This document shows positions 12,811 through 49,860 of a stretch of DNA of 64,000 bases, one piece after another; position 1 is the first letter of the stretch, and each line of letters begins with the position of its first letter. Source of the stretch: Octopus vulgaris (Eukaryota); assembly GCA_951406725.2 (NCBI GenBank), contig OX597820.1:73966001-74030000 (forward strand), in the 5' to 3' direction. The translations under genes and the position numbers were made by a program. The notes beneath the pieces were generated by a model. That model did not search any database. It was not told where the DNA came from and worked only from the letters and a program-made list of their open reading frames with translations.

Positions 12811-13708
12811 GCGATGAATGAAGCAACAAGAATGGATAGGTTTTTAGTACAATCGTTTCATACAAGGACAGGTTTTATTAAAAGTTGCAAAAATTACAGC
12901 ATATAAACGTGTCCCGTACTCATCAGCTAAAATACATGTGGGTTCTCTAGACATCCTAGTGGTTGAGGCTATACTCATGAAGTAATGTAGATAATTAAGT
13001 AACATAAACAGATTTCAAAAGTTCATTAAAGTTCTTTAAAGATGATGTACAGTCTTATCACAGAATTTTAAAAAAAGTCTTAATAGCATCACAGAGAAGG
13101 TGACCCAATCCATAGTGCACATATGAATTTCCAGAGATATGATGAGGGATTACATACTCACAGAAGGCAAATTTATCCATTGTTAATTACAACGAGGTGG
13201 GTTTCAATTCCTGCTTATTAGAATTACAGAGAGGGTGAATTAATCCTTTGTATAGATGCACAATTTCCAATGGTGTAGGTGTAAATTTCAAGGAATTTTA
13301 TATTCACAGGCGATAAATTTATCAATGGTTGAACACAATGAGGTAGGTATCAATTCTTGCTATATGATTAGGTATTTGCCACATTAATCACATTACTGCT
13401 ATTTACAATTGTAAATAGCAGTAATGTGATTAATGTGGCAAATACCTAATCATATAGCAAGAATTGATACCTACCTCATTGTGTTCAACCATTGATAAAT
13501 TTATCGCCTGTGAATATAAAATTCCTGGAAAATTTACACCTACACCATTGGAAATTGTGCATCTATACAAAGGATTAATTCACCCTCTCTGTAATTCTAA
13601 TAAGCAGGAATTGAAACCCACCTCGTTGTAATTAACAATGGATAAATTTGCCTTCTGTGAGTATGTAATCCCTCATCATATCTCTGGAAATTCATATGTG
13701 CACTATGG

Positions 13709-17567: not shown

Positions 17568-17618
17568 GCATTCTGAAGAGATTTACATAAACCAGTAAAT
17601 CGAAACGATCGTAAATGC
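17568..17618 (+). ncRNA. Type I hammerhead ribozyme within a ~250-bp (TA)n-flanked insert (17470-17720)
   Basis: gcatt CTGAAGA gatttac ataaacca gtaaatc GAAAC gatc GTA aatgc; perfect stems I and II; palindromic ACGATCGT. Confidence 0.8.
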
Positions 17619-28163: not shown

Positions 28164-29560
28164 TAGTTTCAGCTCAGAGCTGCGGCCATGCTGATGCACC
28201 GCCGTTTTGCGCTACACTGTTATTACGACGAACCTCCTCTAATATGTGGCACTTGGTGAAGAATGGAGTTTGATACAGCTACTCTCATTTGCACCTCTTG
28301 CCGTGACGTAGGTTCATCTGGGACTCTTGACAGGAAGATGTCCAGCTTTGATTTAAAAACCGCTACATCTACTTTGTGCAAGTTCATCAGACTCTTTGGG
28401 AGAATATTAAAAAGCTGTGGGCCCTTGAAACCCAGGCTGTTGCAGAAGCTGGTCCTGAAGCGTGATGGCATTGCTGGGATCTTTGGCACTATGCAGTGTC
28501 GTCCCGTTCTAGCATTGGTGTAGCTTACAATGCCAAAATTTGGCACAATTCCTTCCAGGATCTTCCAGACATATATTACTGCATACCTCTCCCGTCTTCT
28601 CTCCAGGGAGTAGAGTCTTAGCTGTTTCAACCTTTCCCAGTAGCTGAGCTGTTACAAAGAGACGATCTTCTTTGTGAATCTTCTCTGGATTGCTTCAAGG
28701 TCCGCTGTTAATTTTACACAGGTGGGTGACCATAGCTGTGAGGAGTAATCCAGGCGACTGAGGACGAATGTCCGCCAGAGGACCATCCTGGTTTCCTTAT
28801 CTCTGGTTCTGAATGTTCTTAGGATCCACCCAGCCAGTCGTCTGCACTTTGTCGCTATCCTGGTAATGTGCACTTGGAAAGAGGTATCATCACTCATGTC
28901 GATACCCAGGTCCCTCACAGACTTAGGCTCTGGGATTAAAATTCCCTGTGGACCGGTGTATCCTGTAAGTTTAATATTCAGTTTTGGATTCTGGTAGCGC
29001 AGGGCCTGGAATTTTTCCGCATTAAACTGCATATTATTATCCTCAGCCCATGTGTAGATTGAGTCCAACTCCTGCTGCAGGTGTGCAACATCGCTGGGGT
29101 TCTGTATTTTCTGCGAGACTTTCGTATCGTCTGCATAGCTGGCCAGAGTGGCTATCCGGGCATTTGAGGGCATATCTGAGAGGGCCACTATAAAAAGCAG
29201 TGGTCCCAAGGCAGTGCCCTGTGGAACACCGCTGACTATTTGTATGTTCATAGAGGTGGCTCCATTAACCACTACTGCCTGACTCCTATCTTTCAGGAAG
29301 TCATGCAACCACACTCCGAGTTTTCCAGCTATGCTGAGGTCACGCAGTTTGTGGCATATCATACCATGATCCACCTTGTCAAAAGCTTTTGCAAAATCAA
29401 GGTAGATTACGTCCACATTTGATTTGTTGAGTAACTGCCTCAACACCCAGTCATAATGCTGTAAGAGCTGGGTCAGGCAGCTCCTACCTGGTCGAAAACC
29501 ATGCTGGGTATCACTCAGCAAGTTATTTTCCTCAAGGAATGCGATTAGTTTCTTTCTGAC
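28161..29560 (-). mobile_element. 5'-truncated CR1-group LINE (RT domain and 3' tail); one in-frame stop at 28652-28654
   Basis: QHGFRPGRSC, YLDFAKAFDKVDH, SGVPQGTALGPLLF, YADD, RLDYSSQLWSP, LYSLERRR; 3' tail abuts (TA)n. Confidence 0.9.
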
Positions 29561-29803
29561 TTCATCCTCATCAGCTTTGCCACAATAGTTTTCAATTATG
29601 TTGTCCAGTGTTTTGATGTGTGGTCTTATAAGCATGTAAGACCGGATAAACTCACTTTTCTTCCGCGCTATCTGGTCAATGGTTCTATGAAATCCATTGT
29701 TTTTTAGCGCGGCAGTGATGATGTTGTTCGGCGGATCGCCACTAACAATTGTCCATGCTCTTAGCAGAAGATCCAACTCTTTCTTTTCCCACTTTGGTGC
29801 CAT
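29561..29803 (-). CDS. Short Myb/SANT-like (trihelix/MADF-type) coding segment in frame with the LINE RT
   Basis: MAPKWEKKELDLLLRAW...IITAALKNNGFHRTIDQIARK resembles the W..E...L...W / GF.RT..Q...K pattern. Confidence 0.45.
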
Positions 29804-29819
29804 CTTCGTTTTGAGTTCC

Positions 29820-30395
29820 AGAGGGGGGGGGTAGAGGCTAGAGAGGTAATGAGGGATAGAGAGAGGTAGAGACGGAGAAACACAGAGGGGGGAAATAGAG
29901 AAAGAGAGAGGGAGATAAGAAGGAAAGAGAGAGGTGCTATGAAAGAAATCGAGAGGGTGATAGGAGAAAAGCAAGGGGGTGTGGTGTGTTAAAAAGATAG
30001 AGGAAGGTAGGGGAGGGGGAGAGGAGGGGAATAAAAGGAGAGACAGAGTGAAGGAGAAGAGAGGAAGAGAAAGAGAGGCAGAGTGAAGGAGAGACAGGAT
30101 GAAGGATGTGAGAGAGAGGGAGAGACGGAGTGAGAAGAATGGGTGAATGAGAAGTATATGAGAGAGAGGGTGAGGTGACGAGAGGAGAGGTAGATGTGAG
30201 ATGGAAAGGAAAGAGAAATGAGAGAAGAGGAGGATATGAAAGTGAGGAAGGGAGATGAGAAAAAGAGTAAGATATGCAAGAGAGAAGGAAAGGGTAAGCG
30301 TAAAGAGAGATAAAGGAAGGAAAAAAGGAGCTGGAAGTGGGGGAATATATGTAAGGGAGGGGAGAGGAGGTAGAAGAAAGTGAGGAAATGAAGGA
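29820..30395. repeat. Polypurine (GA-rich) low-complexity tract
   Basis: Direct reading. Confidence 0.85.
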
Positions 30396-30961
30396 ATTAT
30401 TTAATTCTAAACTAATTACAGGAAAATAAACATATGAAAGCGAAACAGAAATTGAAAGAAAATTATTCTCAGAATGTAAACAAAGATGGCGTCGTAAATC
30501 GTAACTGAGATGTTAGCTTATATTAAAGGAAAATAAAAAAATTAATAAACAAACAATTAAAAGCGATACTTATCGTAAAAGGTACAGTCCAAACCCTCGT
30601 GCTTGTACGAAGAAGTTTTCTTTCACAACAGAAAAGAAAACAATTCTTTTTCCTTCTTACATTTGGCTGGAGATAAATTAAAGACTTGCCACCACGTGCT
30701 TTTTCGGCGAAGATTCTAGCATGCGTAACTAAACTTTACTGTATTATATTTGGCTTCAAGCGAAATATATTAGGTTTTTAATTAATATATTTTTAATTAA
30801 TGTATTTTAGTAGACTTTATGAGTTAACAAGTTCTACGTTTTGTTACTTTTAGTAGATTATTTCGTCGATTTATGCAAACCTTTTTGTTTTTTCACAGAG
30901 CAAAAGCAAACACGTCTTTCCTCTACGAAAACCGGAAGTAATATATATATATAATATATAT

Positions 30962-31725: not shown

Positions 31726-31780
<55 letters not shown>

Positions 31781-31811
31781 ATCAAAATAAAAACATGATG
31801 CGAAGGATTCA

Positions 31812-31891
31812 GCGGTACATATGTTTCGGGCCTTTATTAGACAGATTTATAACAATGCATAATGTATGTCTGTGGCCTTCTTCAGCGGCGC
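31812..31891 (-). ncRNA. Hammerhead ribozyme with extended stem II and imperfect stem I
   Basis: CUGAAGA a GGCC acaga...ucugu...GGCC c GAAAC auau GUA; palindromic ACAUAUGU. Confidence 0.6.
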
Positions 31892-33826
31892 ACAACAGCT
31901 TCCACAAGGACATGTGTTACATCAAAAATTCTTGGTTGGGGATGCAAATCCTCTCATTCGCGTACGACATAATGCGGCAGCAGCATAGAATTGTAGCGTC
32001 CATCTCTTTCTTCTCTCAATGTAGAATGAGGAAAGTTGGATGTTGAAGTAATGTAAGTAAATAAATACATATATAGACGTGAAGATGGAGGGGCGAGAAT
32101 TTAGGACGAGGGATAAAAAATGTATAAAAAGTGTAAGTATAGAAAAATATAAAAATGTAGAGCATAAAGATATAAAGAGATATAAGGAGATTAAAGGGGG
32201 TGTAAAGAATATAAAGAAATATAAAGAAATATAAATAAATGTAAAGGCATAAGGTTATAAAGTAAAAATAGAAATAGAAATAAAAGTAAAAAAACATGAT
32301 AAAAATGTAAAAAAATATAAAGATAAGGGATGTATAGAGGTTACGGACCAAACATGGTGGTCAGGAGATTGATAAAATTTAGTTGTAGAAGTGTTAATAA
32401 ATCAACAGTTTCGTCTGGGGACCTAATGTGTTGTAAAACAGAGCTGTTGAGCGTTTAATCTGGTTCTTTGAATTAATTGGTCTTCTAGTACATACATACC
32501 ATCATGGGTACATACACCCATATACACGCGTACATATACGCCTCCAAGCCTATAAGCACACACACGCACTCGCGTGTAAACATGTACATAAACACACACA
32601 CACCCACACGCACGCGCGTACACATACATACATACAACATAATATCCGCATGTATACACGGACACTATACGTGTACACACCCATATGTACATACGTGCGC
32701 CCATCCCTACATACACATACGCATATGCCCACGCTTCCAGGTTTAGATATAAGATAGTAAAGGATGTATATAAGAACGTATGTAAAGAATCATGCACTCA
32801 TGTCTACACGTGCACGCACACACGGCTGTGTGTCCGTATGTGCGTGCACATATACACTTACATACACACACAGAGACATACGCGCATATGGGTATAGCTA
32901 TAAGATATTAAAAGATGTATACAAATAGGTGTACACATATGAATGTAAGAAAACATGTAAAAAAAGGAAATACGGGGTATGTACATCCAGACGTAGATGT
33001 TTACTCGTACATATGTACATATATGTATGCGTATACATACGTACACGGACGCTCGTATAATCATAAAGTGGATCCATAGGTAAGTAAATAAACATATATA
33101 GAGATGTAAAGCGATAAGTTAGGGGTAAGAATGAGGGTAAGGGTAAAAATTAGAAATAAAAGTAAGAAATACAGCATAAAATAAGAAATACAATGTAATA
33201 GTTAGAAATGAAATATAAAAATTATAAAAATTATAAGAGTTAAGGTAAGGGATGAAAATAAAAATGAGAATAAATGGAAGTAGAATAAAAGTAAAAATAA
33301 AAATAAAAATAAAATAAAATAAGATAAAAATATAATTTGGTAGAGTTTAACATGAGCTGAAGGTGGTTGAAAGTTAGAGGTGTGTGTTAAAGGTGCCCAC
33401 GTAGGGGCGGGCGGGGGAACTGAAACTTGGAAGGGTGGGAAGTGGAGTTTGGCGGTGTGCGTTCAACATCCGAGTTAGAAATGTGAAAGGGTATAGATAT
33501 AGGGAAATAAAGAGACTATATAGGAAGGATATGGGTGTAGGAGAAGAAATATGTAGGGAAAAGAAGTCATATATGGGAGACAAAATTTGTATATATAGGA
33601 GGAAAATGCAGGGAAACATATATGCACATACACACACCCACACAAACACACACACACACGCACATATATATATATATATATACATATACGTACACATATG
33701 TGCACATACATATATATACACGCACACATATACGCATATACACGCACATATAGGAAAGCGGGATGTGCTGGAGCCGACAGGTTGCACCGGGTGGGAGGAA
33801 ATTGCATGGGGGAGTTGGTATAAAAC

Positions 33827-35782
33827 CTAAGCTTTGTAGTATTTGAAAGTATTAATAAGTTTGTGTATACAGGATGGTTTGAACTCTGACCTTTTGTTAA
33901 TAAGATTGTGTTTGTCTTTGAATTTCAAGATGTTCAGGAGTTCTACACAACATAGTTGGCATCCTGCTCTATTATTTAAATAAGGTGCAGCTGATCCGAT
34001 GATGGACCACCTGAGATTGAAGCCTATGCATTTGTCTTTTAATTCCCAAATTCTTTTAGAAAGGGAGGTGTTGTTAGCCTTATGTCTGTGTTTCAGCGAG
34101 GACCGGTGGTTGTAGTATCTGGATTTCCAGGAGGTTGAGCAACCTATGTAGGTGACTGTGTTAAACTGGGTACTCACCTCACATGAATATATTACGTTTT
34201 TCGCCCTACATGCACCCTGCAGCGGGCACTCTGATGCACATCTGCAGTTGCATTGCATTGCATTATTCGGTCGTGTGCTGCTAATCCCAGGCGGAGGTGT
34301 TGCAATACGAGTGGGGGCGTTGATATCCTCCTGGTTGTTGATGGGTGTAGTATTTCCTCTGTTGTGTTGGCGGGTGTTATTACTAACTGTTTGGGTAGTA
34401 TGGCTGCCAGTCTGGTTATATTGTCTACTATCTAGATGAGGGGGGTTCTGTTGGTCGCTATAGTTTGCTCTTGATCTAGCTGTTCTAATATTAATATAGT
34501 TATGTTTAGCTATGAGGCAGCTCATGTTGGGCAGGGTAGAGTAGGAAATCCTAATGGTTTTGTTGGAGAAGATACTTCTATACTTGTGGGTGGGTGGGAA
34601 GTTGTTGGAAATGATAGAGAATATTCTCTTACATAACTTACCCCTAACTGCTAAGTTGTAAGGTATGTTGAACCATATATATTTGCGTAATCTACTATTA
34701 TCCCTTCTATTTCTCCTAATAGGATCTATATTGCTCTCGTCGGGAGGGTTACTATTGTGTGCTATTCTATTAGTTCGCCTATTTCCTATACGTTGTTTGG
34801 AGTTTAAATTAGAATTATCGCTAGTGTGAGTTGAGTGCTGAGTTCGATTATAATTGGGAGTTTTATGGCCGACGGACGCTCCCGGGTGGTCTACATATGA
34901 TATTCTCTGGTTATACCCGGCACTATAGAGAGCCTGGTTGTAGTGTTGTGCGTGATTATTGAAAATTTCTCTATTAGAGGATAGTTTTGTAAGTCTGTCT
35001 GAGATGGCTTGGACCGTGGTGCTAATTATACAGGGTGGATGGTTGGAAGAGGTATGGATGTATTTGGTAGTTTCTTCGGGTTTCCTATACGGGTGGTGAA
35101 GGTGCTTATTCAAGTCTAACGTAACATCTAAGAAGTTTACTATTTTAGTATTGGTCATAAATTCTAGTTTAAGATTGAAGGATTTGAAAAAAAGCCTGAT
35201 CTTTTTCCTAATTCTTTCTAGTTTACTCCTATTGTTGGTGGGGTATATGAAGAGAGCGTCGTCTCTGTATAGACCCCCCTGAAGATCCGGTACCTCGGAG
35301 AAAAGCTTCTTGAGCAGGTAGGCCCCGACCAAGTCAGTCACCTGAGCTGAATCGCTCGAGCCCATAGCCACATCAAAATTGTCGGGGGTATCGGATCTGG
35401 TCCAGAGTCTACCGTCGAATTCTATTATGGTTTTTCTAGCTAATAGTATTATGTCAATTTTTTCTCTGTCTATGAGTGAAAGGTTGCGGGCAAAAATAAG
35501 GGATTTGTTAAGTAAGATGGGGGATATACTGGCGTAGTAGCTAGCTATGTCGAATTGGATGAATGAGTAGTCGGGCCTATTGGTGATAGTGTTAAACCAT
35601 TCTAGTACATCGTCGGTGTTAATCCATAGTTGGAGTGGGATGTGGGGTTTGATGTGTGGGATCACCTTGTCCAGGATAGTCTTGCTAAGTCTGCCGATAT
35701 CCGATTTAGTCGGACAGATTAATCGTACTCCTACATTATCCGGGAAGTCTTTCTTATGGTCTTTAATAGTAATTTTGGGTAC
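33827..35782 (-). CDS. Penelope-like reverse transcriptase + C-terminal GIY-YIG endonuclease (open frame of 652 codons including the stop, N-terminus missing)
   Basis: Frame extends upstream of the listed ORF (ITIKDHK, RLICPTKSDIG); FDIASYY, AMGSSDS, LYRDD, FLDV, YRKP, SNHP; CNCRCASEC; VIY...YIG...RYYNH; CQLC..E. Confidence 0.9.
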   Translation of the reverse strand, partial: VPKITIKDHKKDFPDNVGVRLICPTKSDIGRLSKTILDKVIPHIKPHIPLQLWINTDDVLEWFNTITNRPDYSFIQFDIASYYASISPILLNKSLIFARNLSLIDREKIDIILLARKTIIEFDGRLWTRSDTPDNFDVAMGSSDSAQVTDLVGAYLLKKLFSEVPDLQGGLYRDDALFIYPTNNRSKLERIRKKIRLFFKSFNLKLEFMTNTKIVNFLDVTLDLNKHLHHPYRKPEETTKYIHTSSNHPPCIISTTVQAISDRLTKLSSNREIFNNHAQHYNQALYSAGYNQRISYVDHPGASVGHKTPNYNRTQHSTHTSDNSNLNSKQRIGNRRTNRIAHNSNPPDESNIDPIRRNRRDNSRLRKYIWFNIPYNLAVRGKLCKRIFSIISNNFPPTHKYRSIFSNKTIRISYSTLPNMSCLIAKHNYINIRTARSRANYSDQQNPPHLDSRQYNQTGSHTTQTVSNNTRQHNRGNTTPINNQEDINAPTRIATPPPGISSTRPNNAMQCNCRCASECPLQGACRAKNVIYSCEVSTQFNTVTYIGCSTSWKSRYYNHRSSLKHRHKANNTSLSKRIWELKDKCIGFNLRWSIIGSAAPYLNNRAGCQLCCVELLNILKFKDKHNLINKRSEFKPSCIHKLINTFKYYKA

Positions 35783-35842
35783 TTATATATATATAATTAG
35801 TAATGTAAATATCGGTACTTCGTTGTGCCATATATTTACTTC

Positions 35843-35903
<61 letters not shown>

Positions 35904-39449: not shown

Positions 39450-41380
39450 ATTAACATCCTTTGAATGTTGGCTGTTGGAATGTGCGCACACTTCTTGAAG
39501 AAATCAACAAGAAGCCAAAAAGATGTCCTGCACTTATTGCATGTGAGCCTAAGAAATATTCACTTGATATAGTTGCGCTCTCTGAAACCCGTCTCTCTGG
39601 TGAGGGTCAAGTAAATGAACCTATTTATGGATATACTATCTTTTGGAGGGGCCTACCTAAGGGTCAGCGTAGAGAATCTGGTGTTGGGTTTGCTCTCAAG
39701 AATATATTAGTATTCTCCATTGCAGGTAGGTTTCTTGTCCAATTCTGATGAAACTGTAGGACAGTTTTATGATGATCTAACACAATTATTGAGGAAAGTA
39801 CCAATTTCTGACAAGCTGGTCATATTGGGAGACTTCAATGCAAGAGTTGAAAAGGACTACGTTTCATGGCCTGTTTTAGGTCGACATGGTATAGGAAAAT
39901 GTAATAAAAACGGATTAGCTCTTTTGACGTTTTGTAATGAGAATAATCTGGTTTTCACCAACACACTTTTTAAGCAGAAAAATAAATAGACTACCTGGAT
40001 GCACCCAAGATCTAAGCACTAGCATCTCATATATAATATTCTGATAAAAAAAAAACGTGTTATGAAAGACGTGTCTAGCGTTCGGGCTGTGAGAGGAGCA
40101 GAGAGCTGGACTGACCATCGTCTAGTGCGTGAAAAATAGATTCTTCGATAATGCCTAAAAATAGACAGTCTGGTCCTAAGGTATCCAAAAGGTTGCAAAC
40201 TTTAAATTATCAAGCAGCTTGCAAAGATTCCAAGATGCTATAGAAAGTATCAATCTTGACCCAAACAATCTATGGGAAGATTTCAAAACAAAAGTATTTC
40301 AGGCTGCAAGTTCGTCACTTGGATTTAAATCACGTAAGTCCAGTGACTGGTTCTCACATAGATCAGTAGAAATTCATGATCTACTTTCAGAAAAACAAAA
40401 CTTAGGCAATATTTTTCCTTGAACCCCAACACAAACGAAGCTTACAGAAAGCCGAAAAGGAAAGTGCAGACTTCTCTAAGGAAAATTAAACAGGAATGGT
40501 GGAATGATAGAGCAAAAGGGGCACAAGAAGCAGCTGATAGAAATGATATCAAGAGTTTGTACCCTTATGTTAAGGAGGTATATGGCCCCAAATCTTCAAT
40601 GGCTCCAGTGAGAACAGCAAATGGACGTTTGCTTCTGACTGACACCGCTTTTATTCATAAGCGCTGGGCAGAACATTTTTCTGCACTTTTGAATAGACCA
40701 TCGTCTACTGAAATGAGGAGGATAGAAAAAATCGAACACTTTCCAGTTATAGAAGAGATGGCATTTGAACCAACTCTAAATGACATTTATTTAGCTGTGA
40801 ATAAGCTGAATAACAATAAGTTTCCAGGGTCTGATGGAATCTGTGCAGAAGCCTTGAAATATGGGGGAGACAAAATGTTTGAACTCTTAAGTGTATTAAT
40901 TTGTCACTGTTGGAGAACTGAGAAAGTGCCTCAAGAATGGATTTATGCAGTTGTAGTCTCCTTGTATAAATCGGGGCCATAGAATCTGTGTGGTGATTTT
41001 CGTGGGATTTCGCTTTTGCCTGTGGTTGGAAAGGTACTTGCCTGCATTTTGTTAGAACGTTTAAATACCTTCATAATTCCAAATATAGTGTCTGAATCTC
41101 AGTGTGGTTTTCACTCCTCCGGGGGCACAGCTGATTGCATCTTAACTGTCAGACAATTACAAGAAAAGTGCATTGAACAGAATCTTGCTCTATACCTCTG
41201 CTTTGTTAATTTGAGCAAAGCATTTGATACTGTTAATCGAAATGATCTGTGGCTAATTCTAAGGAAAATAGGTTGCCCAGAAAAATTTGTAAACATAATC
41301 CGGGCTTTGCATCAAGATATGAAAGCTAGAGTTAACTTTGGTGGGAGGCTCACTGAATCTTTTGCTGTGGAAAATGGAGT
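39450..41380 (+). pseudogene. RTE-clade LINE (APE endonuclease + RT N-terminal part), multiple stops/frameshifts, cut by gap
   Basis: CWNVRTL, DIVALSETR, ILGDFNARV, TWMHPRSKH, WTDHRLV, PGSDGI, ESQCGF, FVNLSKAFDTV. Confidence 0.9.
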
Positions 41381-41480
41381 NNNNNNNNNNNNNNNNNNNN
41401 NNNNNNNNNNNNNNNNNNNNNNNNNNNNNNNNNNNNNNNNNNNNNNNNNNNNNNNNNNNNNNNNNNNNNNNNNNNNNNNN
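41381..41480. other. Assembly gap (100 N)
   Basis: Run of n. Confidence 1.
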
Positions 41481-43681: not shown

Positions 43682-43752
<71 letters not shown>

Positions 43753-43755
<3 letters not shown>

Positions 43756-46700
43756 ATCAATATAGGGTGGCAAAAAAAAATTTTGTAGAATTCTTTTGCC
43801 ACCAGCGGCCTAGTGGGAAAAAATTAAATAGTCATAAACCATTTTTAAGTTCAACATCACAATCAAGGAACGGCCATAATAGGCCATTCACCCACTAGAA
43901 ATAACAGCCAAAAGCTTTAACCGCAAAATAACGTCAATTCCGTAAACCAGGAGAAAATTAAAAACATTTACCCTGTAATTTCTTAGACGATGCACCGTTT
44001 CATCTACTGTTTAATGGAAAACTAACCTGATTAAATTAAATCAAGCCAATCTACCATAGGCCCTTAGATTCATCAGTAAGAAATAGCCAAGCCGGAACAG
44101 ATATTTTTCACGAGGCATTCTCGTTGCTACCTCGTCAATATCTGACCTAAAATTTTCAAATCGTCGCACTCGCGCCAAATTTATCGGCAGCAAATAAATA
44201 TAAGCCGCCGATTCCATTACGGAATTAACCAGAAAATTCATAATTAATCAATATAGGGTGGCAAAAAAAATTTTGTAGAATTCTTTTGCCACCAGCGGCC
44301 TAGTGGGAAAAAATTAAATAGTCATAAACCATTTTTAAGTTCAACATCACAATCAAGGAACGGCCATAATAGGCCATTCACCCACTAGAAATAACAGCCA
44401 AAAGCTTTAACCGCAAAATAACGTCAATTCCGTAAACCAGGAGAAAATTAAAAAACATTTACCCTGTAATTTCTTAGACGATGCACCGTTTCATCTTCTG
44501 TTTAATGGAAAACTAACCTGATTAAATTAAATCAAGCCAATCTACCATAGGCCCTTAGATTCATCAGTAAGAAATAGCCAAGCCGGAACAGATATTTTTC
44601 ACGAGGCATTCTCGTTGCTACCTCGTCAATATCTGACCTAAAATTTTCAAATCGTCGCACTCGCGCCAAATTTATCGGCAGCAAATAAATATAAGCCGCC
44701 GATTCCATTACGGAATTAACCAGAAAATTCATAATTAATCAATATAGGGTGGCAAAAAAAATTTTGTAGAATTCTTTTGCCACCAGCGGCCTAGTGGGAA
44801 AAAATTAAATAGTCATAAACCATTTTTAAGTTCAACATCACAATCAAGGAACGGCCATAATAGGCCATTCACCCACTAGAAATAACAGCCAAAAGCTTTA
44901 ACCGCAAAATAACGTCAATTCCGTAAACCAGGAGAAAATTAAAAAACATTTACCCTGTAATTTCTTAGACGATGCACCGTTTCATCTTCTGTTTAATGGA
45001 AAACTAACCTGATTAAATTAAATCAAGCCAATCTACCATAGGCCCTTAGATTCATCAGTAAGAAATAGCCAAGCCGGAACAGATATTTTTCACGAGGCAT
45101 TCTCGTTGCTACCTCGTCAATATCTGACCTAAAATTTTCAAATCGTCGCACTCGCGCCAAATTTATCGGCAGCAAATAAATATAAGCCGCCGATTCCATT
45201 ACGGAATTAACCAGAAAATTCATAATTAATCAATATAGGGTGGCAAAAAAAATTTTGTAGAATTCTTTTGCCACCAGCGGCCTAGTGGGAAAAAATTAAA
45301 TAGTCATAAACCATTTTTAAGTTCAACATCACAATCAAGGAACGGCCATAATAGGCCATTCACCCACTAGAAATAACAGCCAAAAGCTTTAACCGCAAAA
45401 TAACGTCAATTCCGTAAACCAGGAGAAAATTGAAAAAACATTTACCCTGTAATTTCTTAGACGATGCACCGTTTCATCTACTGTTTAATGGAAAACTAAC
45501 CTGATTAAATTAAATCAAGCCAATCTACCATAGGCCCTTAGATTCATCAGTAAGAAATAGCCAAGCCGGAACAGATATTTTTCACGAGGCATTCTCGTTG
45601 CTACCTCGTCAATATCTGACCTAAAATTTTCAAATCGTCGCACTCGCGCCAAATTTATCGGCAGCAAATAAATATAAGCCGCCGATTCCATTACGGAATT
45701 AACCAGAAAATTCATAATTAATCAATATAGGGTGGCAAAAAAAATTTTGTAGAATTCTTTTGCCACCAGCGGCCTAGTGGGAAAAAATTAAATAGTCATA
45801 AACCATTTTTAAGTTCAACATCACAATCAAGGAACGGCCATAATAGGCCATTCACCCACTAGAAATAACAGCCAAAAGCTTTAACCGCAAAATAACGTCA
45901 ATTCCGTAAACCAGGAGAAAATTAAAAAACATTTACCCTGTAATTTCTTAGACGATGCACCGTTTCATCTACTGTTTAATGGAAAACTAACCTGATTAAA
46001 TTAAATCAAGCCAATCTACCATAGGCCCTTAGATTCATCAGTAAGAAATAGCCAAGCCGGAACAGATATTTTTCACGAGGCATTCTCGTTGCTACCTCGT
46101 CAATATCTGACCTAAAATTTTCAAATCGTCGCACTCGCGCCAAATTTATCGGCAGCAAATAAATATAAGCCGCCGATTCCATTACGGAATTAACCAGAAA
46201 ATTCATAATTAATCAATATAGGGTGGCAAAAAAAATTTTGTAGAATTCTTTTGCCACCAGCGGCCTAGTGGGAAAAAATTAAATAGTCATAAACCATTTT
46301 TAAGTTCAACATCACAATCAAGGAACGGCCATAATAGGCCATTCACCCACTAGAAATAACAGCCAAAAGCTTTAACCGCAAAATAACGTCAATTCCGTAA
46401 ACCAGGAGAAAATTAAAAAACATTTACCCTGTAATTTCTTAGACGATGCACCGTTTCATCTACTGTTTAATGGAAAACTAACCTGATTAAATTAAATCAA
46501 GCCAATCTACCATAGGCCCTTAGATTCATCAGTAAGAAATAGCCAAGCCGGAACAGATATTTTTCACGAGGCATTCTCGTTGCTACCTCGTCAATATCTG
46601 ACCTAAAATTTTCAAATCGTCGCACTCGCGCCAAATTTATCGGCAGCAAATAAATATAAGCCGCCGATTCCATTACGGAATTAACCAGAAAATTCATAAT

Positions 46701-48904
46701 TAATCAATATAGGGTGGCAAAAAAATTTTGTAGAATTCTTTTGCCACCAGCGGCCTAGTGGGAAAAAATTAAATAGTCATAAACCATTTTTAAGTTCAAC
46801 ATCACAATCAAGGAACGGCCATAATAGGCCATTCACCCACTAGAAATAACAGCCAAAAGCTTTAACCGCAAAATAACGTCAATTCCGTAAACCAGGAGAA
46901 AATTAAAAACATTTACCCTGTAATTTCTTAGACGATGCACCGTTTCATCTACTGTTTAATGGAAAACTAACCTGATTAAATTAAATCAAGCCAATCTACC
47001 ATAGGCCCTTAGATTCATCAGTAAGAAATAGCCAAGCCGGAACAGATATTTTTCACGAGGCATTCTCGTTGCTACCTCGTCAATATCTGACCTAAAATTT
47101 TCAAATCGTCGCACTCGCGCCAAATTTATCGGCAGCAAATAAATATAAGCCGCCGATTCCATTACGGAATTAACCAGAAAATTCATAATTAATCAATATA
47201 GGGTGGCAAAAAAATTTTGTAGAATTCTTTTGCCACCAGCGGCCTAGTGGGAAAAAATTAAATAGTCATAAACCATTTTTAAGTTCAACATCACAATCAA
47301 GGAACGGCCATAATAGGCCATTCACCCACTAGAAATAACAGCCAAAAGCTTTAACCGCAAAATAACGTCAATTCCGTAAACCAGGAGAAAATTAAAAAAC
47401 ATTTACCCTGTAATTTCTTAGACGATGCACCGTTTCATCTTCTGTTTAATGGAAAACTAACCTGATTAAATTAAATCAAGCCAATCTACCATAGGCCCTT
47501 AGATTCATCAGTAAGAAATAGCCAAGCCGGAACAGATATTTTTCACGAGGCATTCTCGTTGCTACCTCGTCAATATCTGACCTAAAATTTTCAAATCGTC
47601 GCACTCGCGCCAAATTTATCGGCAGCAAATAAATATAAGCCGCCGATTCCATTACGGAATTAACCAGAAAATTCATAATTAATCAATATAGGGTGGCAAA
47701 AAAAATTTTGTAGAATTCTTTTGCCACCAGCGGCCTAGTGGGAAAAAAATTAAATAGTCATAAACCATTTTTAAGTTCAACATCACAATCAAGGAACGGC
47801 CATAATAGGCCATTCACCCACTAGAAATAACAGCCAAAAGCTTTAACCGCAAAATAACGTCAATTCCGTAAACCAGGAGAAAATTAAAAAACATTTACCC
47901 TGTAATTTCTTAGACGATGCACCGTTTCATCTACTGTTTAATGGAAAACTAACCTGATTAAATTAAATCAAGCCAATCTACCATAGGCCCTTAGATTCAT
48001 CAGTAAGAAATAGCCAAGCCGGAACAGATATTTTTCACGGGGCATTCTCGTTGCTACCTCGTCAATATCTGACCTAAAATTTTCAAATCGTCGCACTCGC
48101 GCCAAATTTATCGGCAGCAAATAAATATAAGCCGCCGATTCCATTACGGAATTAACCAGAAAATTCATAATTAATCAATATAGGGTGCCAAAAAAATTTT
48201 TGTAGAATTCTTTTGCCACCAGCGGCCTAGTGGGAAAAAATTAAATAGTCATAAACCATTTTTAAGTTCAACATCACAATCAAGGAACGGCCATAATAGG
48301 CCATTCACCCACTAGAAATAACAGCCAAAAGCTTTAACCGCAAAATAACGTCAATTCCGTAAACCAGGAGAAAATTAAAAAACATTTACCCTGTAATTTC
48401 TTAGACGATGCACCGTTTCATCTACTGTTTAATGGAAAACTAACCTGATTAAATTAAATCAAGCCAATCTACCATAGGCCCTTAGATTCATCAGTAAGAA
48501 ATAGCCAAGCCGGAACAGATATTTATCACGGGGCATTCTCGTTGCTACCTCGTCAATATCTGACCTAAAATTTTCAAATCGTCGCACTCGCGCCAAATTT
48601 ATCGGCAGCAAATAAATATAAGCCGCCGATTCCATTACGGAATTAACCAGAAAATTCATAATTAATCAATATAGGGTGGCAAAAAAAATTTTGTAGAATT
48701 CTTTTGCCACCAGCGGCCTAGTGGGAAAAAATTAAATAGTCATAAACCATTTTTAAGTTCAACATCACAATCAAGGAACGGCCATAATAGGCCATTCACC
48801 CACTAGAAATAACAGCCAAAAGCTTTAACCGCAAAATAACGTCAATTCCGTAAACCAGGAGAAAATTAAAAAACATTTACCCTGTAATTTCTTAGACGAT
48901 GCAC
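43753..48904 (-). repeat. Tandem array of ~10.5 x 491-bp units, each full unit carrying one hammerhead ribozyme (retrozyme-like)
   Basis: Period 489-492 bp from the repeated ORF starts; units nearly identical; preceded by (TA)n. Confidence 0.95.
43978..44084 (-). ncRNA. Type I hammerhead ribozyme of unit 1 (repeated in all 10 full units)
   Basis: auuucuua CUGAUGA aucua...uagau GAAAC ggugcauc GUC uaagaaau; 8-bp stem I, canonical core, GUC triplet. Confidence 0.85.
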
Positions 48905-49131
48905 TATTCTTACTGATGAATCTAAGGGCCTATGGTAGATTGGCTTGATTTAATTTAATCAGGTTAGTTTTCCATTAAACAGTAGATGAAACGGTGCATC
49001 GTCTAAGAAATTACAGGGTAAATGTTTTTTAATTTTCTCCTGGTTTACGGAGATTGACGTTATTTTGCGGTTAAAGCTTTTTGGCTGTTATTTCTAGTGG
49101 GTGAATGGCCTATTATGGCCGTTCCTTGATT

Positions 49132-49136
<5 letters not shown>
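48905..49136 (+). repeat. Inverted partial unit of the 491-bp array, with a complete HHR (48907-49009)
   Basis: Reverse complement of ~43856-44086; ends in (AT)n. Confidence 0.9.
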
Positions 49137-49182
<46 letters not shown>

Positions 49183-49860
49183 AAATATATATATGTATAT
49201 ATATTTATGTATGTATATATATAAATATGTATGTATGGATGGATGGATGTATATGTGCAGATTTGTATGGCTTGTTTTATGATTGTATTCTCATGAATAT
49301 AGTTGCATATCTAGACATGCTCATATATACTTATATATGTATGCATGTATGCGTGTATTTATGCATGTATGTACATATGTACATATGTATGTATATGTGT
49401 ATTTATGCCTGTATCACTGTCAGCATATTCATATCTCTGTACATGTAACCAGGAACTTCTCAGTAATAAAAGACTTTTTTTGTTCATCACCAACTAAAGT
49501 CTAGTCAAAAAATACTTCTGATTACAGGCCGAGATTATAGATTCCGACTCCAGCTCCCCGCTTGGTATCACGTTTAGATCTAAACACAATTTTTATCTCT
49601 CACGCCCTTAATGTAAACTGGTCGTTGTATCCACCGATAACGCCTTTGTTGTTTGGTATTTAGTTTCTTTTATATGCTTCCCAGCCAATTCCTTTCACCC
49701 TGCCACCATTTCTACTGCTGTGTTTTACAACCCGTTCTCTTCCTTCCTCACCCCACGGTATATCTATGGCATTACGATAACATACAAGTCCATAGACTGT
49801 CACTCACTTGGCTTAGTCGTTGCCTGTGGTACTAGCAAGATTCTGTAAAATCCTCTACGT

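Follow-up and report, generated by a model that had tools for sequence, protein, structure and literature searches.

Metazoan retrozymes without long terminal repeats (non-LTR retrozymes) are tandemly arranged mobile units bearing hammerhead ribozymes, for which, according to a 2020 review, no motif revealing the mobilizing enzyme has been recognized in animals (PMC7761336). Penelope-like elements have been proposed as their movers on the basis of shared ribozymes, co-occurrence, and homology to pseudo-long terminal repeats (pLTRs), to which the Xenopus retrozymes have been linked (bioRxiv 10.64898/2026.07.22.740005). Penelope-like elements have been described with inverted arms and a tail (PMC8557442, PMC3846280), and one of their clades, Hydra, inserts into (TA)n and carries hammerheads (PMC8557442). 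A Penelope enzyme investigated in vitro cuts and extends both DNA strands, prefers AT-rich DNA, is predicted to form a dimer, and begins synthesis at two internal positions, by which the tail is delimited (PMC11167929). Herein, a 5.4-kb block is described from a 64,000-nt stretch of the Octopus vulgaris genome (assembly GCA_951406725.2, contig OX597820.1, positions 73,966,001 to 74,030,000 of the forward strand), which is termed the window. The block, lying at 43753-49136, is one copy of a young, dispersed, non-coding mobile repeat family and not a satellite, and it is considered probable that it represents a single insertion, made by a Hydra-type Penelope enzyme that copied a predicted 491-nt RNA circle from two fixed starts.

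Most of the block is a tandem run with a period of 491 nt, which was located by Tandem Repeats Finder (TRF) in the window at 43749-48904 with 10.5 copies and 99% matches. The unit starts are 489-492 nt apart, the identity to unit 2 is 99.0-100%, and the GC content of the unit is 36%. A preliminary description of the block, made from the letters alone, had reported ten full units plus a half unit, nearly identical and placed between (TA)n tracts, and both statements were confirmed. It had also taken the whole block as a concatemer, which holds for the long arm at 43753-48904 (5.15 kb, among the longest arms seen) but not for the last 230 nt, where a reverse-complement arm (48907-49136) with an eleventh hammerhead had been overlooked; this arm lies outside the tandem run, is 98.7% identical, and covers unit positions 100-327. 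The absence of a credible protein, stated from the beginning, agrees with the finding that the largest open reading frame (ORF) of the array comprises 66 codons, a length reached by 7% of shuffled circles, and is missing in the sister families R2/R3, for which reasons a protein product of the unit was rejected. The same frame, which runs over the hammerhead (e.g., window 46015-46215, minus strand), is nevertheless open in R1a, R1b, and R1c, in the last through compensating indels.

In the same genome, 977 candidate unit matches were found (40 scored), and the identities among the 150 matches listed range from 96 to 100%. An exact 23-mer of the ribozyme core occurs 956 times genome-wide, against zero occurrences of a control pattern, and its 96 matches on contig C1 correspond to 35 loci, from which about 350 loci are extrapolated for the genome. 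Related families are R1b (~95% identical), R1c (90%), and R2/R3 (~73%), and a tail motif common to the unit and its sister families occurs 2,188 times; one R1c array (L197) has at least 12 units. An ordinary satellite would occupy one or a few long loci with random array ends, in contrast with the roughly 350 short loci with fixed ends found here, so that the single-locus satellite considered beforehand as the contrary outcome is contradicted by the 23-mer count, the number of loci, and the (TA)n-flanked copies. The sequences instead present what is expected of non-LTR retrozymes, namely, dispersed copies of tandem type I hammerhead units that are non-coding, below 45% GC, and a few hundred nt long, and the retrozyme-like identity proposed earlier is supported by the dispersed (TA)n-flanked copies together with the covariation of the ribozyme.

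The insertion architecture was analysed in 94 insertions, which were collected from the best-scoring genome matches, the loci listed for the core 23-mer, and the loci in 20 tail-motif stretches, leaving out arrays cut by the edge of an extracted stretch or less than 84% identical. Two inverted arms, with the RNA 3' ends always outward, were observed in 70 insertions, and their outer ends correspond to two fixed sites, A and B, located 105 nt apart: 63 of the 70 copies combine A with B, seven have one off-site end, and none has A+A or B+B. These 63 copies therefore show the hallmarks of a Penelope-type product, an arm that is inverted and 5'-truncated and a tail confined to one end. Only the inner junction varies in position, so that the different permutation points anticipated in the preliminary description are not seen at the outer ends. 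Out of 57 junctions, 26 were not measurable, eight carry insertions, and the remaining 23 show a mean microhomology of 2.1 nt, compared with 0.73 nt at random. Of the first 73 loci, 71 have (TA)4 or longer on at least one side and 64 have it on both sides, while duplications of ~14-15 nt were noticed at two mixed-flank loci (L122, L151). In the R2/R3 families, 37 loci provided 22 two-arm copies, consisting of 19 A+B, one A+A, and two off-site copies, three of which share flanks and may be one event.

These regularities bear on the suspicion that misassembly produced the array or its inversion, which is hardly credible. Although a 100-N assembly gap lies 2.3 kb to the left of the array (window 41381-41480), the mixed alleles of the array discussed below could stem from polishing, and the copy number of the array is taken from the assembly alone, both array ends follow the rule of dozens of other loci. 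Moreover, the unit is covered by contigs of four sequencing runs from four studies, two of the runs being labelled as other organisms, which means that the family exists outside this assembly; contigs of three runs contain the head-to-tail joint, and a contig of run X1 joins unit position 100 directly to (TA)n, as at the B end. These run contigs (for X1 and X9, an RNA origin is no more than a guess) carry no information on transcription, strand, level, or circularity, and a head-to-tail joint also arises from tandem DNA.

Many young Penelope-like elements are harbored by this genome, including intact Hydra-type ORFs of 718-1091 codons with nearly identical copies. The translations of two families, H1 and H2, display a C-terminal GIY-YIG-type domain, DKT, and a CxCx5C linker, with RWK being exact in H2 and RWA in H1, and their hammerheads and (TA)n target also fit the Hydra definition (PMC8557442); a Pfam search gave no match on the Penelope-like ORF of the window. 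Of 19 two-arm insertions of H2, 18 combine an end lying ~37 nt beyond the cleavage site with a second end ~155 nt beyond it, and one has an off-site end; eight of the 19 were selected because both arms were visible, which leaves the end class unbiased. The Hydra-type tails in this genome measure ~70-120 nt, and the Hydra-type hammerheads also possess a long stem II (50-62 nt). The Penelope-type reading of the retrozyme ends is founded on the H2 end rule and on the two-start mechanism described in vitro (PMC11167929), and the insertions were likely written by a Penelope-type enzyme, which favors the reverse transcriptase (RT) partner named in the preliminary description (63/70 A+B; 18/19 in H2). 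The connection to Hydra is a footprint and not homology, because the search for an autonomous element with sequence in common with the unit was negative in families H1-H3 and in the flanks of the extracted loci, a sample of a few families out of more than 11,000 RT candidates. Comparison of the unit with the H1, H2, and H3 loci by blastn gave nothing or chance matches of 13-29 nt, and no linked ORF was found at 20 tail-motif loci or in the related short family R6.

The assignment of the insertions to another enzyme, either the Naiad or Neptune clade of Penelope or a long interspersed nuclear element (LINE) acting by twin priming, is very improbable. Naiads do target (TA)n and have tails, yet they are reported as long-dead remnants in cephalopods (PMC8557442). 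The tails quoted for other clades are 30-40 bp in length, as against ~70-120 nt in the Hydra-type elements here. LINE fragments and another GIY-YIG ORF are present in the extracted loci, and no sequence link between the unit and Hydra was found; twin priming by a LINE, however, leaves a variable outer end, whereas two fixed ends are observed here.

The nature of the template can be approached from the comparison of arms. Units of the same arm diverge by 0.38%, the two arms of one locus by 0.48%, and different loci by 2.4% on average, and since the arms are nearly as alike as the units within an arm and far closer than the loci are to one another, both arms go back to a single template sequence. 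The use of two different templates for each insertion was accordingly rejected as a rule, and the outlier L135, with 17% between its arms, was not treated as a second family, as one of its arms seems to be damaged or poorly assembled. In 47 of the 63 A+B copies each arm extends beyond a cleavage site, and in 24 each is longer than one unit, which a single linear monomer cannot yield. Only seven of 102 inner ends are found no more than 15 nt from the cleavage site (6.4 expected, p=0.84), and the inner ends are enriched over a strong hairpin (26/102, p=6e-6). The simplest reading is a circular RNA template, as proposed earlier for such elements (PMC4209133, PMC7229834). A-to-I editing was rejected as the source of the inherited variants, with nine A>G versus seven U>C changes among 48 locus-fixed variants (p=0.31).

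It is unlikely, by comparison, that the same Penelope-type enzyme used the same starts on a linear multimeric RNA, transcribed from an array already in place and left uncleaved, with the ribozyme being incidental to insertion. Such a template would agree with the in vitro work, in which ribozyme mutants had no effect on insertion and unprocessed RNA was dominant (PMC11167929), and the variants common to units of the present array would be expected if a source array had passed on a multimer. In contrast, the inner ends lack the single sharp stop of an RNA 5' end, their excess being spread over the hairpin mentioned above, a nested inversion copied from a source junction was found in 0 of 70 two-arm copies, and the ribozyme fold is conserved across families. 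Arrays copied in this manner would also shrink in each generation, yet arms of 10-12 units exist.

A minus-strand hammerhead with stem I AUUUCUUA/UAAGAAAU, CUGAUGA, GAAAC, and GUC was found in each of the ten full units, as first described. Stem I has 8 bp, stem II has 5 bp (4 bp in three of the ten units) and continues into a long hairpin extension to reach 68 nt in total, and stem III has 4 bp and a palindromic loop, the 12 nt of which are self-complementary (dimer duplex -17.5 kcal/mol). The core with CUGANGA, GAAA, and NUH, the three stems, and the opening at stem I are those of a type I hammerhead. The Rfam search recommended in the preliminary description missed the motif, giving nothing at the gathering threshold across the window and, in 48000-49300, no hammerhead at E<=10; the 68-nt length of stem II is the probable reason. 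In a comparison of 12 variants, only N7 and the cleavage base vary within the core, 97% of the cells are paired, and changes on both sides occur at six of 30 pairs, in stems I, II, and III and in the stem II extension; none of 500 shuffles scored as high in either pairing or covariation. In addition, the 491-nt monomer folds better than 100 of 100 shuffles (z=-6.2). Judged by this sequence comparison, the ribozyme fold is shown to be under selection, and self-cleavage activity is predicted.

Assembly of an insertion could be envisaged as follows. The arrays would be transcribed on the ribozyme strand, and the hammerhead would cut after GUC, probably aided by dimer pairing through the palindromic stem III, whereupon a host ligase would close the monomer. 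A dimer of the Penelope RT-endonuclease would then bind the circle and cut both strands of a (TA)n tract, one DNA end priming at A and its counterpart at B, 105 nt away. Each cDNA would travel round the circle by strand displacement over a variable distance, and the two cDNA ends would join via a few bases of microhomology with filling of the gap, giving rise to two inverted arms. Some long arms may grow or be homogenized locally afterwards.

Several observations weigh against this scheme. One arm only is present in 24 of the 94 insertions, one R3 copy is A+A (L192), and the Hydra assignment of H1 and H2 was made by eye from motifs, to which the missing autonomous homologue of the unit must be added. 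In vitro, Penelope insertion proceeds without ribozyme cleavage, unprocessed RNA being the main substrate, and the start site does not differ between strands (PMC11167929). As for the ribozyme, the lowest-energy fold of the isolated molecule is an alternative lying 5 kcal/mol below the hammerhead fold, pair 10.1-11.1 is A-U where G-C is usual, the count of pairs changed on both sides is matched by 51 of 500 shuffles, and the 12 variants are related sequences; moreover, only one of nine predicted Xenopus retrozymes cleaved in vitro (bioRxiv 10.64898/2026.07.22.740005). The units of the array raise a further difficulty, as the array contains both the A and the T allele of one stem II site, a mixture unique among 73 loci. 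Units 2, 3, and 8 carry an allele otherwise fixed at 17 other loci, the adjacent units 9 and 10 share a private change, and L033 displays period-2 and period-4 variant patterns across its 11 units.

The variants shared among units of the array cannot be explained by one monomer circle, and its mixed variants would be given by template switching, local duplication or conversion, or polishing errors; the patterns of L033 suggest local block duplication. The mixed alleles and the private change make a single rolling-circle product too simple for the array, and in place of the one rolling-circle reverse-transcription product put forward originally, two cDNAs are recognized, the long arm starting from A and the inverted arm from B. 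The length of the array may be partly due to later local expansion. A more radical version, in which insertions are short at first and long arrays have grown in place by unequal crossover or slippage without any rolling circle, is regarded as quite improbable. Such a model has been proposed (bioRxiv 10.64898/2026.07.22.740005) and accounts for the duplicated two- and four-unit blocks of L033 as well as for the variants shared by adjacent units of the array. Nevertheless, 24 of 63 very young copies have more than one unit in each arm, variants are confined to single units in most multi-unit arms and absent from some (L057, L048), and a monomer-length arm would be unable to seed unequal crossover without a prior duplication. 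Copying of a circle from two starts, with possible local expansion of some long arms, remains the preferred account. The features of the block are collected in Table 1.

Table 1. Features of the retrozyme-like insertion and its flanks, in window positions
Feature	Position	Strand	Remark
Left (TA)n tract, target microsatellite	43685..43752		TRF; (TA)4+ at other loci
Long arm, 10.5 head-to-tail 491-nt units	43753..48904	-	Ribozyme sense minus; outer end at fixed start site A
Tail, ~105 nt between start sites A and B	43753..43855	-	At one outer end of an insertion only; concept from PMC8557442, PMC11167929
Type I hammerhead, unit 1	43978..44084	-	Predicted cleavage after C at 43986
Hammerhead cores, units 2-5	44477-44567, 44968-45058, 45460-45550, 45951-46041	-	Same motif as unit 1
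Hammerhead cores, remaining full units	46442-46532, 46931-47021, 47421-47511, 47913-48003, 48404-48494	-	Same motif
Inversion junction	48898..48912		Long arm ends in stem III loop; inverted arm starts at stem I 5' strand; one T lost
Short inverted arm, 230 nt	48905..49136	+	Outer end at fixed start site B, 49136
Eleventh hammerhead	48907..49009, core 48913-49003	+	Inside inverted arm; stem I cut to 6 bp
Right (TA)n tract	49137..49179		TRF/sequence

Other elements were noticed in the window and beyond. A 5'-truncated young Hydra-type Penelope-like element of family H1 lies between (TA)n tracts at 31770-35845 (minus strand), with an open frame of 651 codons at 33830-35782 that covers the RT and an endonuclease-like end, and with a separate hammerhead core starting at 31885; H1 copies elsewhere are 97-100% identical and have 842-codon frames. 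An H2-family hammerhead at 12848-12926 (minus strand) ends at the H2 short start site in (TA)n, and another minimal hammerhead is situated at 17573-17613 (plus strand), 107 nt upstream of (TA)n. Frames judged by eye to resemble LINE reverse-transcriptase fragments occur at 28655-30400 (minus strand) and 40380-40979 (plus strand). At L093 and L090, Hydra-type ORFs of 981-1091 codons contain long asparagine-rich inserts, as in rotifer Penelope elements (PMC3846280).

Further hammerhead-bearing or related non-coding families are found in (TA)n, with units of ~560 nt (L167, L208, L250) and ~586 nt (L050, L126, L190), as well as those at L241-L259. In the examined copies of the Penelope-like family H3 (L139 and others), the TA-rich 3' untranslated region contains a small two-arm fragment akin to the 560-nt family, which has apparently been captured as an insertion and travels along with the element around it. 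The motif GCUGYUAUUUCUA is located 40-55 nt upstream of the fixed end in these non-coding families and in the family studied here, and it is also present in an unrelated common repeat; it is a candidate signal for a common enzyme. A broader proposal is advanced tentatively, with somewhat less than even expectation: in double rolling-circle target-primed reverse transcription, a Penelope RT dimer would read one ribozyme-made circle from two starts, each primed by one cut DNA end, and a set of retrozyme families in this genome, with GCUGYUAUUUCUA upstream of start B, would parasitize the enzyme as circular RNAs. If true, a single step would account for the tandem, inverted, and tailed form of Penelope-like elements. 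The short unit serves as a counter, since several hundred insertions record the distance and the start of each cDNA, and a small RNA together with a natural enzyme makes two questions directly accessible to experiment, namely, whether circular templates are used by Penelope RTs and what gives rise to the inverted and tailed structure.

The family appears to be a new one within the non-LTR retrozymes, the class itself and the Penelope hypothesis being already in print. No cephalopod retrozyme was found in the literature searched, although most subscription journals, Repbase, Dfam, and supplements lay outside the search and may hold one, and word searches of the main texts of three retrozyme papers revealed no description of inverted arms or tails (PMC7229834, PMC7761336, bioRxiv 10.64898/2026.07.22.740005). 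With the retrozymes of these papers it shares non-coding, low-GC tandem units with one type I hammerhead each, a palindromic stem III, a structured monomer, hundreds of loci, and co-occurring Penelope-like elements. It differs from them in the inverted arms with fixed A/B ends, the (TA)n targeting, and the 68-nt stem II, and it has no detectable pLTR homology, which is present in 24 of 57 Xenopus families (bioRxiv 10.64898/2026.07.22.740005). The unit, initially judged long for the class, does exceed 170-400 nt (PMC7229834) but falls inside the range of 51-972 bp given more recently (bioRxiv 10.64898/2026.07.22.740005). Circles have been shown for coral, mussel, and axolotl retrozymes and are predicted for the present family.

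This family, the Hydra clade (PMC8557442), and Poseidon PAc (PMC11167929) have in common 5'-truncated arms in both tandem and inverted arrangement, a tail restricted to one end, (TA)n targets, a hammerhead upstream of the starts, and two internal RT starts; the family is distinguished from the other two by the lack of an RT or endonuclease ORF in the unit, by multi-unit arms, and by a stem III of 4 bp instead of 1 bp. Start B lies 131 nt from the cleavage site here, compared with ~25-45 nt in autonomous Penelope-like families. The insertions themselves bear a Penelope footprint identical to that of intact elements of the same genome, which points to the long-suspected mobilizing enzyme. In LINE-1 twin priming, both target strands likewise prime, and an inversion with junction microhomology results, as in this family; unlike LINE-1 products, the insertions described here have fixed outer ends and no poly(A), and their arms copy the same template region, often several times.

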